A stretch of DNA of 64,000 nucleotides from a phage: NCBI GenBank assembly GCA_022897995.1, contig GCA_022897995.1_4763.1; one strand, 5' to 3'. Below are positions 2,283 to 8,860 of the stretch, one piece after another. The notes beneath the pieces are model-generated. The model had not been told where the DNA came from, did not search any database, and was given only the letters and a program-made list of their open reading frames with translations. Position numbers and translations under genes: made by a program. Within the stretch, counting starts at the first letter, position 1. Every line of letters begins with the position of its first letter.

Positions 2283-2310
2283 TTGACAGTGTGATTTAGT
2301 GGCTTATAAT
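2283..2310 (+). promoter_or_regulatory. sigma70-type early promoter
   Basis: TTGACA 2283-2288, 16-bp spacer, TATAAT 2305-2310. Confidence 0.55.
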
Positions 2311-2430
2311 GGCACACATCAACAGGGCGTTACCTTATGAGGAAAATATTATGAATATGGGGTTGAAAATGGCTTTAATAACTGTTACTGTCCTATTCGT
2401 TGTTGTGTTTATGAATGTATGAGGTGAAGT

Positions 2431-2628
2431 ATGAATGAGATTGTACGATTGATCAAAGAAGCACCAATCGAGATGTATTTTCTGGCTTTGGTTGCAACAA
2501 TGGTCTATCAGCTAGTCGCATGTCATGTGTGGAAGTCAGAAAATGCGTTTATCCGGTTTTTTGGTACTGTCATGATCCAGTTTCCGGTACTGATCACTAT
2601 CCTGTTAATCGTCAATGGGGCGAAGTGA
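2431..2628 (+). CDS. small hydrophobic protein (hypothetical)
   Basis: ORF-track ORF, 65 aa, mostly hydrophobic; GAGGTG RBS near 2421-2426; I could not reconcile the first codons with my reading of the sequence. Confidence 0.3.
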   Translation: MNEIVRLIKEAPIEMYFLALVATMVYQLVACHVWKSENAFIRFFGTVMIQFPVLITILLIVNGAK

Positions 2629-2903
2629 TGGACAAGAAAACAGCGTTAATGGTTTACATGCTACGTGAAGACCACGGTCTTAATTTTGTTGATATTGCTA
2701 AAAAGATTGGCGGGATCAGCGGACAAGATGCGGCTAAGGCATGGTTGATGGTAAAAGATGCACGCGAGGCTTACGCCAACCGTGAAAAGGTTGTTTATCG
2801 TAAACACCACATCAACAAAAAATTTAAAAATAAAGTTCAAAAACGTGTTGACAAGCCAAATAACACTGTTATAATGGACGCATTCAAACGGGCAATGTCC
2901 TAA
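2628..2903 (+). CDS. hypothetical basic protein (91 aa)
   Basis: ATG at 2628 overlapping upstream stop (TGATG); ORF track extends to 2520; lysine-rich C-terminus. Confidence 0.4.
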   Translation: MDKKTALMVYMLREDHGLNFVDIAKKIGGISGQDAAKAWLMVKDAREAYANREKVVYRKHHINKKFKNKVQKRVDKPNNTVIMDAFKRAMS

Positions 2904-2949
2904 TTTGTAATTAATATTCTGAATAACTAATCAATAGAGGTGACTAATT

Positions 2950-3387
2950 ATGAAATTCCGTAAAAACCACGTAGCAATGAAAAAAGCAATGTTCGAAGCA
3001 TTCAAAGCAGTTGATCAGGGCGGTGTTACTCTGATTGAGCAAATTAATGTTGATGTTTGGCAATCTCCGGCGATCACTTGCTCACGTCTGGCGACGGCTG
3101 GTCTTCTGAACGTTCACAGCTCTACAGCATACGACGAAGCATTGCAAGTTATTAAGGCTTTCGCTGGAGACGTTACCAGCAAGTGGGTCTATGAGAATAA
3201 AGGTGAAATTGCGGTTGCTCACGTAGGCAACAATATCCAGATGGAAATCAAGATTAAGGAAGGGTCTAAACGCAATCAGATGCTTGTTCGCTTCCAGCCA
3301 TACAAAACTAACGTAGTGCCGGATGATCTGATCATCTCTAAGAGTAATGTTACCATTCGCCGAAATCAGATCGTTATCAACAAATAA
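2950..3387 (+). CDS. hypothetical protein (145 aa)
   Basis: AGAGGTG RBS 8 nt upstream of ATG 2950; terminator follows. Confidence 0.55.
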   Translation: MKFRKNHVAMKKAMFEAFKAVDQGGVTLIEQINVDVWQSPAITCSRLATAGLLNVHSSTAYDEALQVIKAFAGDVTSKWVYENKGEIAVAHVGNNIQMEIKIKEGSKRNQMLVRFQPYKTNVVPDDLIISKSNVTIRRNQIVINK

Positions 3388-3395
3388 TTAACATT

Positions 3396-3422
3396 AGCCG
3401 TCCTTCGGGGCGGCTTTTTTGT
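3396..3422 (+). terminator. intrinsic terminator
   Basis: AGCCGTCC-TTCG-GGGCGGCT hairpin plus T6. Confidence 0.7.
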
Positions 3423-3473
3423 ATCTATTATTGACATAATTTTAGTTTACATGTGCACAATATTAATACTGTT

Positions 3474-3514
3474 TGATTAAATTATGATCAAAACGAAGAA
3501 AGATCTTTAGAACA
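3474..3514 (+). repeat. intergenic repeat copy A (TGATTAAATTATGATCAAAACGAAGAAAGATCTTTAGAA)
   Basis: Near-identical to 3622-3660; AAAACGAAGAAAGATCTTTAGAA also at 43137-43159. Confidence 0.6.
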
Positions 3515-3621
3515 TAGAAAATGTATCTTTGATTAATTATTAATCAATACATATTGTAACACAAATGTTATACTCCGTAGGAGTTCGCGAAGCGATATCC
3601 TTTTGTGTAGTTTTACATGTA

Positions 3622-3683
3622 TGATTAAATTATGATCAAAACGAAGACTTATCTTATAGAATAATAAAAATTTGTTTCGAACA
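3622..3683 (+). repeat. intergenic repeat copy B (extends through TAATAAAAATTTGTTTCG)
   Basis: Shares TGATTAAATTATGATCAAAACGAAG with 3474-3497 and GAATAATAAAAATTTGTTTCG with 43158-43178. Confidence 0.6.
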
Positions 3684-3799
3684 TTTATTAATCAATTACT
3701 GGAAGTGTTTTATTGCTCGCTGTGCTCGCTTCCGCTACGCGGATACTTGTGTTTGTTATTAACTTGTAGTATGATATTGCTTTCTATGGAGGAAATATT

Positions 3800-4387
3800 A
3801 TGTTTGACCAGTTACAAGATCTATTTGGAGTAAAACCACTTCGTAGATGTGCTTTAATCGGCTCTAGAAAAGCGCCTAGCGACATTTTGATAATGGCTAG
3901 TACCATTGGGAGGGTATTGTCAGAAAATCGCGTTGTAGCGCATTCTGGAGGGGCTTACGGTATGGACAATGCTTTCATGAAGTATTACGATCCAGATTAT
4001 AGAAAAATTTTCATTCCAAATTGGAAGTTTTATGACCATAAGCATAACGGTCATGATGTGATTGCATGGCAAACCTTAGAACAAAAGAATCTGGCGATGG
4101 ATGAATTAGAACACGTTTATGATAATCCTCGTTCTATACCGTTATACATGCAAAATTTATTTTCTAGAAATGTTGCTCAAGTCTTAGGTGAGACACTTGA
4201 TGACCCTGTAGATTGTGTGATATTCTGGGCGCAAGAAGTTAATGGTATTGTTTCTGGAGGAACTAGAATTGCTGTCTATGTTGCTCGTAGACATGGGATA
4301 CCATGTTTTAACTTATATCATCAAGAAAATAGATCCGCCGTCGAAAAAATCTTGGGCGGATCTGATTTGTCCTGGTTAGATATTTAG
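3800..4387 (+). CDS. DprA/Smf-like Rossmann-fold (SLOG superfamily) protein
   Basis: GGAGG RBS then ATG 3800; motifs ALIGSRKAP and RVVAHSGGAYGMD match the DprA/Smf-LOG pattern; assignment from motifs only. Confidence 0.45.
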   Translation: MFDQLQDLFGVKPLRRCALIGSRKAPSDILIMASTIGRVLSENRVVAHSGGAYGMDNAFMKYYDPDYRKIFIPNWKFYDHKHNGHDVIAWQTLEQKNLAMDELEHVYDNPRSIPLYMQNLFSRNVAQVLGETLDDPVDCVIFWAQEVNGIVSGGTRIAVYVARRHGIPCFNLYHQENRSAVEKILGGSDLSWLDI

Positions 4388-5629
4388 TTAAGCGTTGTCA
4401 ATCTCAAGCGGTGGCAGTTCGATTCCTAAAATGTAGGACATTTCTGAACGTCCAGCCATTTTACCCCAATCGTCACCCTTAATGACCTGGTGTTCTTCCT
4501 GATCAACTTTTGATGTATATGGGTTGACAGAGAGTGAATAACGATTCATAATAGCTACATGATGCTGGAAACTATTAGGGTCAATTACGCTCTTATACGC
4601 GCCAGCGCCATCGGCTTCTGTGTATGGGGAGTAGAACAGAGAACCTACACTCTCCATATCACCGATCATGTGCTTACAACCAACGAGCATATAATCGAAA
4701 GGTGTTGTCGTGTCTGCGTACACTTCCAGACCGCAACGTAGACGACCTTCGCTTAGAGCGTTGTCGGTTTCTTCCATCCATCCGGTGGATTGCAGGAGGC
4801 CAACCACGCGAGAAGACGCCAAAACGTATGTACCAGCAAAGGAGGAAGTACGCAACATTTGATTGCTCATTTCGCACGCGTAGCGGTAAAGTTCGCGAGC
4901 TTGTTTTGGTGCATCCTGAACGCTAACGAGAGAAAGTACGCCATCAGGGGTGATCCCTTTAATTTTATAGCGAGATGATACAGTGATCAACTTCTGAATA
5001 ATATCTTTGTTGATCTCTTCGGAAGCGACAGTAGCCAGAAGATCAATTACAGAGTTTTCCGAGTTGATTTGGCTTGCTTCAAGATCCTGCATTAATTCAG
5101 TGGTGAACGAGGTTTTCAGTTTACGAGAACCTACATTAACTTGCCACTTGTCAAACTGCATAGAGGTAGACGCAATTTCGGTGTTTTTATCTTCAAAGTA
5201 TTCTACCGATGCACAATCGCTATAGAAACGAATTTTGTTTGTCATTACGCCTTTAAAGATCGCAGCTTCTGGAGTTGCTGCATCTTCACCGACTGTACCA
5301 GCGGTCACAACTTCATATACAACATCGCCAGATTTGAACAATGCGCCTTCATCATAAGATTTTTCTTTTGAAAACTCTTCAATCTCTGTGCGATCACCAG
5401 CCGCGCCACCGTATGTTGCAGCAGTTCGGAAAGTCATCTGACCATCACGATTAAGATAACGTAGGCCGTACAATGCAGATACTGGTTGATCCGTTGGCTG
5501 AATTGCTACCAGATCAGAGAAAATCAGGTTGTTTACCGCGCGAGTTAATGATAATAGTTGCGGTCGCGCTGTCTGGTTAGCTACTGAGGAAGTAGATTCC
5601 CGCAACAGTTCAGTAAAAATATGAGTCAT
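4388..5629 (-). CDS. 24: capsid vertex protein gp24
   Basis: gp23 paralog by similarity, T4 position after gene 23; ATG at 5629 (MTHIFTELL..) chosen over the upstream ORF-track start; late promoter upstream. Confidence 0.85.
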   Translation of the reverse strand: MTHIFTELLRESTSSVANQTARPQLLSLTRAVNNLIFSDLVAIQPTDQPVSALYGLRYLNRDGQMTFRTAATYGGAAGDRTEIEEFSKEKSYDEGALFKSGDVVYEVVTAGTVGEDAATPEAAIFKGVMTNKIRFYSDCASVEYFEDKNTEIASTSMQFDKWQVNVGSRKLKTSFTTELMQDLEASQINSENSVIDLLATVASEEINKDIIQKLITVSSRYKIKGITPDGVLSLVSVQDAPKQARELYRYACEMSNQMLRTSSFAGTYVLASSRVVGLLQSTGWMEETDNALSEGRLRCGLEVYADTTTPFDYMLVGCKHMIGDMESVGSLFYSPYTEADGAGAYKSVIDPNSFQHHVAIMNRYSLSVNPYTSKVDQEEHQVIKGDDWGKMAGRSEMSYILGIELPPLEIDNA

Positions 5630-5877: not shown

Positions 5878-6810
5878 TTATGGAGAATTTGGGGTTAATT
5901 CAGGGAACAGCGTACCAAAACCAAAATTACCGCTAGCGTCACGCTGGAATGTCATAACAAGGTCGACATAAACCGGATCTGTAAATCTATCAAATCTATC
6001 CGACCCAATATCAACCATGAACGCTAATTTAATCTCATTAGAATTTGAGATCGCAGCGTCAGCACATGCACCAAAAATTACCTGAGTATCTTTTGCCGTA
6101 TATGCATTGACCTGTATGTTGGTTGGTTTCATTACATCGTTAGACAAACCAGATAGTTCTACTCGTCCATTAAACGACGCCAGACTTTGACCACCGCCTA
6201 GATAATGAATATGACCACCTTGTGAAGATTGTGTCCAGTCCATTAGCATAACCTTAAATCTAGCCTCAAAACGCCCTTCCACGTAATATCGACCAGTTTC
6301 AAAGTTTTGTCTAATTGGTGTCCATGTGATGTGTGGTTTTCCGCTTACAGGATCGACAAGAGTCACACCTACGGCTGGCTTAATACTGACACTATCAAAT
6401 GAACGTGATAGCCAATTCCATGTTTGATTGTCTAGGTTTGGTAATTGTGGAATATTCAATCCATCTAATCGGCTGTGTGCTCGTGCTGCTTCCGATTCTG
6501 CGGTAGTCGCTTTAGTCAGTGCATCAGTTGCTTTGCTCATGGATTGCCCTGCCGTTCGATCAGCAACGTCCGCAGTTGATTTTGCAATCTCTGCCGTTCG
6601 ATGTGCTGAACTTGCTGTTTCTGTTATTACGTCATCGCACGCAATAACAAAATCAATTACAGGATCGATCAATTGAGTGTTGATTGAGTTGGAAATTCGT
6701 TCAACATCACTTTCCATTAGAGCATTAGATTCATTTCCTGTGAAATGAGTAATTTCACCTTGAACAAAATCATTTTGCAACTTGCTGATCTTTGCTTTAA
6801 TATCGGACAT
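5878..6810 (-). CDS. hypothetical late protein, coiled-coil N-terminus plus globular C-terminus (310 aa)
   Basis: GGGGTG RBS then ATG 6810; Ala/Thr-rich helical N-terminal third; part of the insertion between genes 23 and 24. Confidence 0.6.
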   Translation of the reverse strand: MSDIKAKISKLQNDFVQGEITHFTGNESNALMESDVERISNSINTQLIDPVIDFVIACDDVITETASSAHRTAEIAKSTADVADRTAGQSMSKATDALTKATTAESEAARAHSRLDGLNIPQLPNLDNQTWNWLSRSFDSVSIKPAVGVTLVDPVSGKPHITWTPIRQNFETGRYYVEGRFEARFKVMLMDWTQSSQGGHIHYLGGGQSLASFNGRVELSGLSNDVMKPTNIQVNAYTAKDTQVIFGACADAAISNSNEIKLAFMVDIGSDRFDRFTDPVYVDLVMTFQRDASGNFGFGTLFPELTPNSP

Positions 6811-6825
6811 GAATCACCCCGCTAA

Positions 6826-8544
6826 TTATTGTGCTTGCTCTGGAAGTGCTTGTATATTTTCTATAGTAGCACCCCATTTAACGGCATTTAAACGAGCTTT
6901 GTGCATATCGTCTTCTCCGACTATTGCCGCAAAACCCTTTTTAGCGTGGAAATTCGCCCATGTGTTATATGCTAGTGCACCTACGCGTTTTGCTGTGTCG
7001 TGTTCAACTTCATCAACCATCAGCATTGTGCGGAAAGGTGCAAATGCTACATCTGGGTTATCGTCTTGTGTCCATGAACCACCATTAAACGACACCTGCC
7101 ACCTGAACATCTCACCAGACGGAATTTGATTAATTCTCAACTTTAGAGATCTTGTTTTCTGGTTTTTCTGAGTTACGTCTAGTGGAACCTGATATCTAGC
7201 CGCTTGTCGTTCTCTACCATCATTCATCCTATGCCATGCGGTAACAACAAGCATAACCGGAATTGTGTTTGATGTTTTAATAAAACTAACATCAACTAAA
7301 AGTTCCATATCATAGCTACCAGATTTAGGCGCAACCCACCAATGGTCGGCATCAGCTTGTCGATCTGGCTCTTTAATCTGTGGTGTGCATCCATAGTTAT
7401 CATGAATGACATACTTCCACGGAATGTAAAAAGCACCACCGCCAGTTCCTGGATTTGTAACTTCGAGTAGATTTTGTGCAGTGGTAAACACGCTGGACAC
7501 GCGAGGGAAAGCATAAATGGTAGCACCACCAGTGTGATCGCTGATCTGTAACCATTCGGTCCATCGATCAGTTCTCTTTGTATAGGAACGGTGATACATT
7601 ACGCCATCAATGCTTGTTGCGATCTGCAATACATGATCTTTACATGCATGAACATCTACAGAACCATGCGTTTGTGTTCCATTTGGGCGGTTTGCGGACC
7701 CCTCAAAATAACAGAAACGACCCTGTTTCGTCAAGGAATTTAGGTCTAGCGTTTCTGGCGAAATTTCCGGTAGACGTTTACCCAGACTGGTTAACATCGC
7801 CTCCTGATCACCATTTAAACCACCGCCACCGCTTCCTTCCCCGCTTTGAGAGTTCCACTCACGCCATGCACCATTGTGTCGGATACGAGAGTAAACACCA
7901 CCATCAATAGAACGGACCACTTGAAGAATGCTACCATCGACGACATATACATCTGCGGACCCCTTATTCGCCATCATTGGAGGTTTGCCATAGGTTGCAT
8001 CACCTACCGGATAGCGTCCGGGTGATGTTGTTACATCCAGATTATTAATCGGATTCGTCGTAGTCCATTTTACTTCAATTGCAGATAGACGCTGCGCAAC
8101 GTTCGCTAATACTTCTGGCACTGGAAACACTAACGATTCTTGAGTTTCATCTGAATACGTGATCTCTAGAGTCCAGTTGCGATCGTCCTCGGACAAGTTC
8201 GCTTCGATTCTAGCAATACCACGACCATTTTCGCCCTTCTCACCAGGAATACCCTGTTCGCCCTGAATAACCCAGGTCATATCGACCCATTTGGAATTAT
8301 CGTATGGAGATTGCGACGTTTTACCCGTCCATAATTGGAGTTTAGCACCACAAACAATAATTGTTTTTAGTCGCTCCAATTCTGGAAAATGGGTGTTGAA
8401 ATATGCGTCTCGTTCCCCTTCATTTTCGAAACGGTGAGTATTTTTAATTCCGCTAGGTACGTTAGTTCCGATCTGAATACCGCCACCAGAACAACCACCA
8501 CTCACGGAACCAGCATTAATGATAGCTTGTGGATTTAGCTTCAT
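6826..8544 (-). CDS. collagen-like repeat containing protein, possible fibre or decoration protein (~572 aa)
   Basis: ATG 8544 after GGGGG RBS (ORF track starts at TTG 8568); Gly-X-Y run GEQGIPGEKGENGRG; repeated motif (ILQVVRSIDGGVYSRIRHNGAWREW / VLQIATSIDGVMYHRSYTKRTDRWTEW); Gly-rich linkers. Confidence 0.6.
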   Translation of the reverse strand: MKLNPQAIINAGSVSGGCSGGGIQIGTNVPSGIKNTHRFENEGERDAYFNTHFPELERLKTIIVCGAKLQLWTGKTSQSPYDNSKWVDMTWVIQGEQGIPGEKGENGRGIARIEANLSEDDRNWTLEITYSDETQESLVFPVPEVLANVAQRLSAIEVKWTTTNPINNLDVTTSPGRYPVGDATYGKPPMMANKGSADVYVVDGSILQVVRSIDGGVYSRIRHNGAWREWNSQSGEGSGGGGLNGDQEAMLTSLGKRLPEISPETLDLNSLTKQGRFCYFEGSANRPNGTQTHGSVDVHACKDHVLQIATSIDGVMYHRSYTKRTDRWTEWLQISDHTGGATIYAFPRVSSVFTTAQNLLEVTNPGTGGGAFYIPWKYVIHDNYGCTPQIKEPDRQADADHWWVAPKSGSYDMELLVDVSFIKTSNTIPVMLVVTAWHRMNDGRERQAARYQVPLDVTQKNQKTRSLKLRINQIPSGEMFRWQVSFNGGSWTQDDNPDVAFAPFRTMLMVDEVEHDTAKRVGALAYNTWANFHAKKGFAAIVGEDDMHKARLNAVKWGATIENIQALPEQAQ

Positions 8545-8551
8545 ATAATAA

Positions 8552-8860
8552 TTACCCCCGTTTAGCAAGATACACGGTTACAGTAGAATCATTGGAAACA
8601 GATTTTACTTTTGCCCTAATAAATGACCATAATGTTTCAAACGCTCCACCATCAGTTGCATATTCATTACCATCAGCTTTCAATTCTGAAATAGTGAACC
8701 AACCTTTGCCATCTAAGGAACCTTCTAACGAGGCTTCCGCAATGACTTTTTGCCCTTCCCTTGCACCTTCTACGGTCATTTGTACTGTCATATGCGTACT
8801 ATGAACGCAGTTTACCGACGCGGAAACGGCTGGAGTTTTGGTCTTTATAAGTGTGTGCAT
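8552..8860 (-). CDS. hypothetical late protein (102 aa)
   Basis: AAGGGGAG RBS then ATG 8860; TATAAATA late promoter ~39 nt upstream. Confidence 0.55.
   Translation of the reverse strand: MHTLIKTKTPAVSASVNCVHSTHMTVQMTVEGAREGQKVIAEASLEGSLDGKGWFTISELKADGNEYATDGGAFETLWSFIRAKVKSVSNDSTVTVYLAKRG

Follow-up and report, generated by a model that had tools for sequence, protein, structure and literature searches.

The phage DNA analysed here, a window of 64,000 nucleotides (nt) from contig GCA_022897995.1_4763.1 of GenBank assembly GCA_022897995.1, carries next to the head vertex gene 24 an open reading frame (ORF) for a protein of 195 amino acids that resembles bacterial DprA/Smf, and the question raised by this locus is what a phage would do with a DprA domain that stands alone. 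Our answer has two parts of different strength. As to its nature, the protein represents a DprA-type SLOG core reduced to a minimum, in which the ligand pocket has been retained and the accessory domains, together with most of the C-terminal segment, have been lost. As to its function, we tentatively favour, at somewhat less than an even chance, a non-catalytic binder of a nucleotide within single-stranded DNA (ssDNA), possibly an ADP-ribosylated one, that would support counter-defence or DNA repair, perhaps in cooperation with de-ADP-ribosylases, ligases or nucleases. The ORF is a real and maintained gene because it is conserved in all 59 phage records that match the 1-kb stretch around it, nearly all of them Krischvirus (RB49/Phi1/JSE-type T4-like coliphages): DNA identity of the gene amounts to 95–99% in 58 of these records and to 90–95% in one. 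The RB49 copy is 99.5% identical to the window protein at the amino acid level (tblastn), and the ortholog in phage Phi1, whose flanking DNA is 97.9% identical, is ORF164 (YP_001469510), situated between ORF165 and the convergent gene 24 and named 'DprA-like DNA recombination-mediator protein' in the RefSeq record. The gene and its DprA-like assignment are hence already known from public annotation (RefSeq, PHROGs).

A first-pass annotation of the window, made from the sequence alone, had read the protein as a DprA/Smf-type Rossmann (SLOG) protein on the strength of the motifs ALIGSRKAP (residues 18–26) and RVVAHSGGAYGMD (residues 44–56). Both motifs are found as quoted, and the reading holds, since the corresponding profile matches exist: PHROG 768, 'DprA-like DNA recombination-mediator protein', is matched with E 1.7e-60 (residues 15–187 against profile positions 4–181 of 191), and profile–profile comparison by hhalign of the phage family with 118 diverse bacterial DprA Rossmann domains, collected by a DNA pattern scan, gives a probability of 96.8% and E 2.7e-10 over 141 columns, with the motifs in register (IGSR/VGtR, RSGGAxGAD/VSGLAxGID, L-h-x-R-N/F-p-x-R-N and GGT/SGS). 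When the family was aligned to the single sequence of E. coli Smf, hhalign returned the N-terminal 64 columns only, at 34% probability. Solved DprA chains rank first (E about 2e-5) in a search of the PDB with the family profile. The Pfam model PF02481 matches the window protein with E 8e-5 and 22.3 bits, which is below the gathering cut-off of 29.6 and covers residues 15–60 only, and the curated DprA threshold of TIGR00732 is missed (14.4 bits versus a cut-off of 191). Across 100 diverse family members, PF02481 is matched by 92, LDcluster4 by 37 and the YpsA-related models by at most 2; by sequence profile, the protein is not a member of the YpsA-like clade (PF06908, PF10686, PF12694). DprA shares 20% identity, ThsA 11% and YpsA 8%.

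Structure prediction, which had been suggested as a check, gives a single Rossmannoid domain (AlphaFold2, mean predicted local distance difference test score 85) with the three-layer alpha/beta architecture of the SLOG type. The protein had also been described as free of the other domains of bacterial DprA, and this is borne out: neither the SAM nor the winged-helix/DML1 domain is present, and no other Pfam domain is found in the 195 residues. Beyond residue 173 the protein no longer aligns to DprA; some 22 residues, predicted as one short helix, remain there, compared with about 55 more in DprA.

The retained pocket is the part of the protein that speaks most directly to its ligand. Two motifs, G-S/T/A-R in the loop that follows the first core strand and F/L/Y-x-x-R-N/D in helix alpha-6, have been proposed as diagnostic of ssDNA-binding DprA domains (Wang et al. 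2014; PMC3950713); the DprA pocket takes one base of ssDNA plus a backbone phosphate, and the exchanges R52E and R143E in HpDprA reduce ssDNA affinity about 315-fold and 173-fold, respectively (PMC3950713). Both signatures are present in the window protein: G21-S22-R23, which is 89–100% conserved in the family, aligns to IGTR of HpDprA and VGSR of E. coli Smf, and L120-F-S-R123-N124, located in a predicted helix spanning residues 115–129, aligns to the F-P-x-R-N of DprA. The GSR after strand 1 and the loop S49-G50-G51-A52-x-G54-x-D56 after strand 2 correspond to the Gly-rich loop and GxD/E motif described for SLOG proteins (PMC6459960), and the loop G153-G154-T155 forms a further element of the pocket. 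Conservation computed across the 100 members shows G21, G50, G54, D56, R123, G153, G154 and T155 to be invariant, whilst S22, R23, P26, S49, A52, P73, N124 (96%), Q127, A158, A162 and N171 are conserved to at least 90%.

The same residues bear on whether the protein could be an enzyme of the LOG type, that is, a nucleotide N-glycosidase (phosphoribohydrolase) whose substrates would be modified or AMP-like nucleotides and whose place would be in phage nucleotide metabolism. In some lineages the neighbours include genes for dCMP deaminase, ribonucleotide reductase and ThyX, which would suit such an activity; however, the LOG catalytic motif PGGxGTxxE is not present, the local sequence being S-G-G-T-R-I-A with the position of the Glu taken by A158 (95% Ala in the family), and PF03641 (Lysine_decarbox/LOG) is not among the 25 Pfam families most often matched by the 100 members. 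Nor does the family exhibit an acidic residue conserved to at least 70% after strand 3 (residues 73–100), where the catalytic site of active relatives lies. We consider a LOG-like enzyme highly improbable.

The name under which the gene is filed in RefSeq and PHROGs suggests instead a true recombination mediator: a protein that dimerises, coats ssDNA and loads host RecA or the phage's own UvsX for recombination-dependent replication. The conserved ssDNA-binding motifs of DprA are in keeping with this, as is the location of the gene in replication or recombination modules of several phages. Against it stands the truncated C-terminus. The hydrophobic dimer interface of HpDprA is formed by P183, L196 and F205 (PMC3950713), and while the equivalent of P183 falls within the DprA-aligned part of the phage protein, those of Leu196 and Phe205 lie beyond it, so that two of the three contacts are missing. 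The SAM domain, needed for stability of the DprA-like antitoxin ShosA, is lacking as well; the phage already has UvsX, the dedicated mediator UvsY, gp32 and gp59, all of which are encoded in Phi1; and T4 copes without the gene, no Tequatrovirus being found among the 60 records listed of the 1,357 matching ones. A role as mediator is therefore improbable in our view, and the protein is probably not a classical RecA/UvsX loader.

The gene itself is unsurprising, and the value of the locus lies in the picture of the family to which it belongs. When 1.84 billion cluster representatives (50% identity clusters) were searched by profile, 4,321 relatives were obtained, of which 2,727 score below E 1e-10; almost all of the relatives stand alone and are some 180 amino acids long. 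By tblastn the family is present in 1,357 of 50,697 phage records (about 2.7%), as opposed to 30 of 72,556 plasmids: it is large and mainly phage-borne, and with so few plasmids a role in the leading region of conjugative elements, which we had considered, is not general. The lineages concerned include many Straboviridae genera, Pakpunavirus, Nankokuvirus, Stephanstirmvirinae and Chaseviridae, as well as the T5-like My1, an N4-like roseophage and a Thermus phage. Records usually label these genes DprA-like or hypothetical, and sometimes 'RNA ligase', as in MT341500 (EBPL), MW272540 (ZPAH1) and MW748999 (Skers). The last label is likely a spreading annotation error, which probably arose from the location of the gene at, or next to, the place of T4 rnlB. 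RNA ligase 2 does adjoin the DprA-like gene in JD18 and a Slopekvirus, with overlapping coding sequences; we set this aside as a functional link, as it is found mainly within T4-like phages and may merely reflect shared synteny.

The context of the domain can be seen from the proteins to which it is fused and from its gene neighbours. Among the 150 best representatives, five carry a NADAR domain (P0047, P0125, P0153 and the giant P0017 and P0019), one a DUF4326 domain (P0137) and one RecJ (P0138), and a plasmid protein carries a Macro domain; fusions to Macro, NADAR and DUF4326 had been noted in the survey of viral SLOGs by Iyer et al. 2022 (PMC9503650). Gene neighbourhoods were analysed in 124 loci from IMG/VR and elsewhere, which correspond to 99 lineages at 60% identity; a degenerate DNA pattern for RSGGAxGADxAF had returned 120 IMG/VR loci. 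Neighbours in this set are NADAR (7 lineages), DUF4326 (5), the phrog_2072 domain (5), NAMPT (5), DnaB (6), Dda (6), class II ribonucleotide reductase (8) and dCMP deaminase (5). In individual phages the gene lies immediately beside a NAD-dependent DNA ligase (My1), near an ATP-dependent polynucleotide ligase with a helicase downstream (RP10), or beside a single-stranded DNA-binding protein (SSB; flopper) or a DNA polymerase (LG08), and NAMPT is encoded 1–1.5 kb away in a Slopekvirus and in Pakpunavirus C11.

A side observation concerns the phrog_2072 domain, about 128 amino acids in length and without a Pfam model, which bears the motif FVFGSNxxGxHGxGAA: it is fused once, at the C-terminus of P0094 (residues 180–339), and is otherwise a separate neighbour (e.g. 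ORF 4 of IMG/VR locus L114). It may be an uncharacterised partner in a common pathway. Neither this domain nor NADAR or DUF4326 was found in the window by tblastn.

The NADAR, Macro and DUF4326 fusions can be read in two ways, depending on whether the ADP-ribose is free or attached to DNA. In the first case, the phage protein would bind or process soluble signals derived from NAD, for instance ADP-ribose derivatives such as the cyclic ADP-ribose isomers that Thoeris-type TIR proteins make, and would thus dampen immune signalling by the host, which is the published prediction for viral SLOGs (PMC9503650) and which the proximity of NAMPT would also fit. The family is, however, nearest to DprA and not to the YpsA or ThsA clades, as seen from both the Pfam matches and the identities given above; no conserved acidic catalytic residue is found, the LOG Glu being replaced by Ala; and the RecJ fusion together with the ligase, SSB and helicase neighbours points to DNA. 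Furthermore, the fused domains no longer single out a soluble ligand: NADAR strips ADP-ribose from guanine in ssDNA (PMC11543638, PMC11257639, PMC11125620), and both NADAR and Macro domains of the DarG type are now known to have ADP-ribosylated DNA among their targets, de-ADP-ribosylating bases in ssDNA and thereby shielding phages from DarT (PMC11257639, PMC11543638). On this evidence a soluble-signal function is rather unlikely, though it deserves to be taken seriously.

In the second case, the target being DNA, counter-defence comes into consideration, and T4 offers a precedent in gp30.3 (AdfN), which acts as an orphan antitoxin against DarTG1 (PMC11257639). The phage protein could be a recognition subunit for ssDNA or ADP-ribosyl-DNA that works with NADAR/AdfN or Macro proteins against DarT-like toxins, or else an orphan mimic of ShosA or PsyrA; taken together, DNA-directed counter-defence of this kind is clearly unlikely, but if true it would represent a new and widespread class of phage anti-defence, found in about 2.7% of sequenced phage genomes. 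As for the mimic specifically, it would replace the unstable DprA-like antitoxins ShosA or PsyrA and silence the toxin after host shut-off, comparable to AdfN mimicking DarG1. Weak PADLOC matches were obtained in all seven of seven close relatives (best E 7.5e-7 for PsyrA and 5.7e-6 for ShosA), ShosA action needs ssDNA binding via Arg residues equivalent to R23 and R123 (PMC12961424), and orphan antitoxins serve as counter-defence in T4-like phages (PMC11257639). Yet the PADLOC matches span only the generic N-terminal 45 residues common to every DprA; ShosA, the antitoxin of ShosTA, depends on dimerisation and RecA binding in addition to ssDNA binding (PMC12961424), and neither of the two nor its SAM domain is visible in the phage protein; and the family is far commoner than ShosTA and PsyrTA would seem to require. 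Mimicry of these antitoxins is decidedly improbable.

The ligand that we favour is an ssDNA-bound nucleotide. The protein would grip a nucleotide in ssDNA, possibly one that is ADP-ribosylated or otherwise damaged, and this binding would aid phage DNA replication, repair or counter-defence, possibly together with the enzymes fused to the same domain elsewhere, namely the NADAR and Macro ADP-ribosyl hydrolases, DUF4326 and RecJ. Two features of the family stand out: the ssDNA pocket of DprA has been kept, whilst most of the dimer-contact C-terminal segment has gone, and the domain has repeatedly been fused to three families of ADP-ribose-removing domains, and for two of these, recent work has demonstrated that they act on ssDNA as anti-DarT factors of phages.

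Several observations weigh against this proposal. In other SLOG proteins this pocket holds a free nucleotide, which the conserved pocket of the family could do as well, and Q127, N171 and LPW-x-GF, conserved in the family without a DprA counterpart, could define another ligand. The window protein is slightly acidic (pI 6.1), the family median being 8.6. No partner dominates the neighbourhoods, each occurring in 3–8 of the 99 lineages (below 10%), and the early region of any phage commonly contains replication genes. The Krischvirus gene is adjacent neither to 30.3 nor to any recombination gene: the NADAR gene 30.3 of Phi1 lies about 27 kb from ORF164. The survey by Iyer et al. 2022, the sole one published, proposes for viral SLOGs a role in sensing or degrading ADP-ribose derivatives that are soluble. 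Early expression of the gene, probable as it is, is an inference from its orientation (see below). Finally, we found no experimental work, binding or genetic, on any phage member of the family in the literature; it goes unmentioned in the papers about AdfN, NADAR specificity and gene essentiality by HIDEN-SEQ. Should the family prove to be a DNA-directed counter-defence or repair module, a common component would be added to the phage–host arms race, and the labels 'recombination mediator' and 'RNA ligase' would be corrected.

The features of the locus are collected in Table 1.

Table 1. Features in and around the DprA-like gene, with positions numbered along the window.
Feature	Position	Strand	Remarks
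Extended sigma-70 promoter TTGACA-16-TG-TATAAT, perfect	2848..2875	+	inside the 3' end of the 24.3-like (DUF2774) ORF
Intrinsic terminator: hairpin with a GC-rich stem of 8 bp, then TTTTTT	3396..3415	+	-16.2 kcal/mol, z -4.66; annotated terminator in G37-3
Repeat unit 1, putative promoter cassette P1	3470..3548	+	box 3474-3492; weak -10-like TAGAAC 3508-3513
Repeat unit 2, putative promoter cassette P2	3618..3696	+	box 3622-3640; -10-like TAGAAT 3657-3662
GC-rich leader element GCTCGCTGTGCTCGCTTCCGCTACGCGGA, ending in a small hairpin CCGC-N3-GCGG	3712..3743	+	4-bp stem kept and loop varied in three lineages
Shine-Dalgarno sequence GGAGGA	3788..3793	+	6 nt before the ATG; read from sequence
Coding sequence, 195-residue stand-alone DprA-type SLOG protein	3800..4387	+	ATG start; ortholog of Phi1 ORF164
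Hairpin AGATCCGCC...GGCGGATCT, then AUUUUCUU (U-rich tract)	4331..4363	-	9-bp GC-rich stem; inside the DprA-like ORF, in its final 20 codons
Gene 24, head vertex protein, convergent neighbour	4388..5629	-	matches Phi1 gp24, 1242 nt

Upstream of the gene lies a non-coding spacer of 412 nt (3388–3799; 25–30% GC), which begins with the terminator of the preceding ORF165-like gene (2950–3387). This spacer had been called a promoter-rich repeat region, a description that stands in part. There is one direct repeat in two copies, 73% identical to each other, with no further copies elsewhere in the window; as for richness in promoters, a sigma-70 consensus scan of the region 2300–4700 found no enrichment (6 sites compared with 8.5 expected from shuffled sequence), and the promoter-like sites within the spacer are weak ones only. 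Alignment of the spacer with those of two diverged relatives (L264 and L265, with proteins about 57% and about 49% identical) nonetheless gives the repeat a structure: each unit consists of a conserved box, TGATTAAA-N3-TGATCAAA, followed 16–18 nt on by a -10 element, which is a perfect TATAAT in three of the four units of the relatives and TATATA at the same spacing in the fourth. Because the units of the relatives carry both box and -10 element, it is plausible that the spacer of the window holds two tandem promoter-like cassettes, whose -10 elements appear decayed when compared with those of the relatives.

The box itself is found at 4670–4688 and 4810–4828 in L264 and at 4732–4739 and 4868–4875 in L265; duplicated, with two half-sites one helical turn apart and upstream of the -10 element, it is conserved in three lineages and may represent either a -35/UP region of unusual kind or the operator of some regulator. 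The leader element that follows the second unit is conserved in L264 and partly in L265. From RB49 and Phi1 the PeSL (promoter-early stem-loop) cassette has been described, consisting of a GC-rich stem-loop terminator, an AT-rich tract and a consensus sigma-70 promoter (Arbiol et al. 2010; PMC2839356). Measured against it, the spacer has the stem-loop, an AT-rich tract and a TTGACA (3431–3436), but no acceptable -10 element at 16–18 nt, and the -35/-10 elements of the downstream units are weak. No Rfam family or tRNA was found in the spacer apart from a chance-level match to TarB over the terminator, and the idea of a small ORF or RNA gene in the spacer was rejected, the only candidate ORF being a TTG-initiated one of 53 amino acids that overlaps the start of the gene.

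The sole consensus promoter within 1 kb upstream of the DprA-like gene precedes the ORF165-like gene, and read-through from it is the alternative source of transcription. Expression of the DprA-like gene would probably be early, perhaps from the two weak tandem sigma-70-type cassettes or through such read-through, because its orientation matches that of the neighbouring leftward genes and is opposite to that of the late gene 24.

At its other end the gene converges on gene 24, as the first-pass annotation had it: the stop codons touch, the TAG of the DprA-like gene (4385–4387) abutting the TAA of gene 24 (complement of 4388–4390) with 0 nt between them. The minus-strand hairpin in Table 1 is positioned just past the gene 24 stop and folds with -29.5 kcal/mol (z -5.55), a value reached by none of 200 shuffles, and a terminator predicted by ARNold is annotated at the equivalent position in the record of phage G37-3. 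It is likely the terminator of the late gene 24 transcript, placed inside the 3' end of the DprA-like ORF because there is no intergenic space, and the segment would therefore serve a double duty as coding sequence and RNA structure.

Two further regions of the window differ from Phi1. Between gene 24 and gene 23 (5878–8860, minus strand) there are three extra genes, encoding 310 amino acids, about 572–580 amino acids with the collagen-like GEQGIPGEKGENG, and 102 amino acids, at an interval where Phi1 has two tiny ORFs only; the complete cassette occurs in 6 of the 59 matching records and also in the diverged relative L264, and its PHROG matches are all of 'unknown function'. On the plus strand, at 9–959 and 994–2235, lie tandem Hoc-like genes with Ig repeats, both ending in the capsid-binding module YVHPIPWR[RK]TSF; Phi1 exhibits a single hoc gene at this position, and L264 and L265 two large Ig-domain genes each.

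Comparison with known systems places the protein as follows. Towards LOG/PpnN phosphoribohydrolases and the MoCo carrier protein, identity is 12–17%, and the phage protein has neither the PGGxGTxxE of LOG nor a Pfam LOG match. The viral SLOGs surveyed by Iyer, Burroughs, Anantharaman and Aravind (2022, Viruses 14:1977) are likewise stand-alone in large phages, show Macro, NADAR, DUF4326, exonuclease and helicase fusions and were predicted to act in virus–host conflict; however, the survey puts most of them in the YpsA-like clade, whereas the window family scores with DprA, and in BFVD the family stands apart from the viral SLOGs related to YspA and cpYpsA, with template modelling (TM) scores of 0.6–0.77 within the family and about 0.42 to those. 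ShosA, at about 300 amino acids, has a SAM domain, forms a dimer, binds RecA and is encoded beside a phosphoribosyltransferase toxin, in contrast to the phage protein, a stand-alone core without an adjacent toxin gene. Bacterial DprA/Smf (PF02481; 4LJK/4LJR, 3MAJ, 3UQZ) is alike over the 141-column profile match and in all four elements of the ligand pocket, yet the phage protein, at some 195 amino acids, lacks the SAM and winged-helix/DML1 domains as well as residues at both ends of the extended fold (about 40 at the N-terminus, about 45 at the C-terminus), has family motifs of its own (T-P after GSR, LPW-x-GF after strand 3, RN-x-x-Q and F-N-L), and is phage-borne, outside the competence regulon. 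PHROG 768, with Phi1 ORF164, is the family itself, with an equal gene position converging on gene 24 and a name that was given by similarity.

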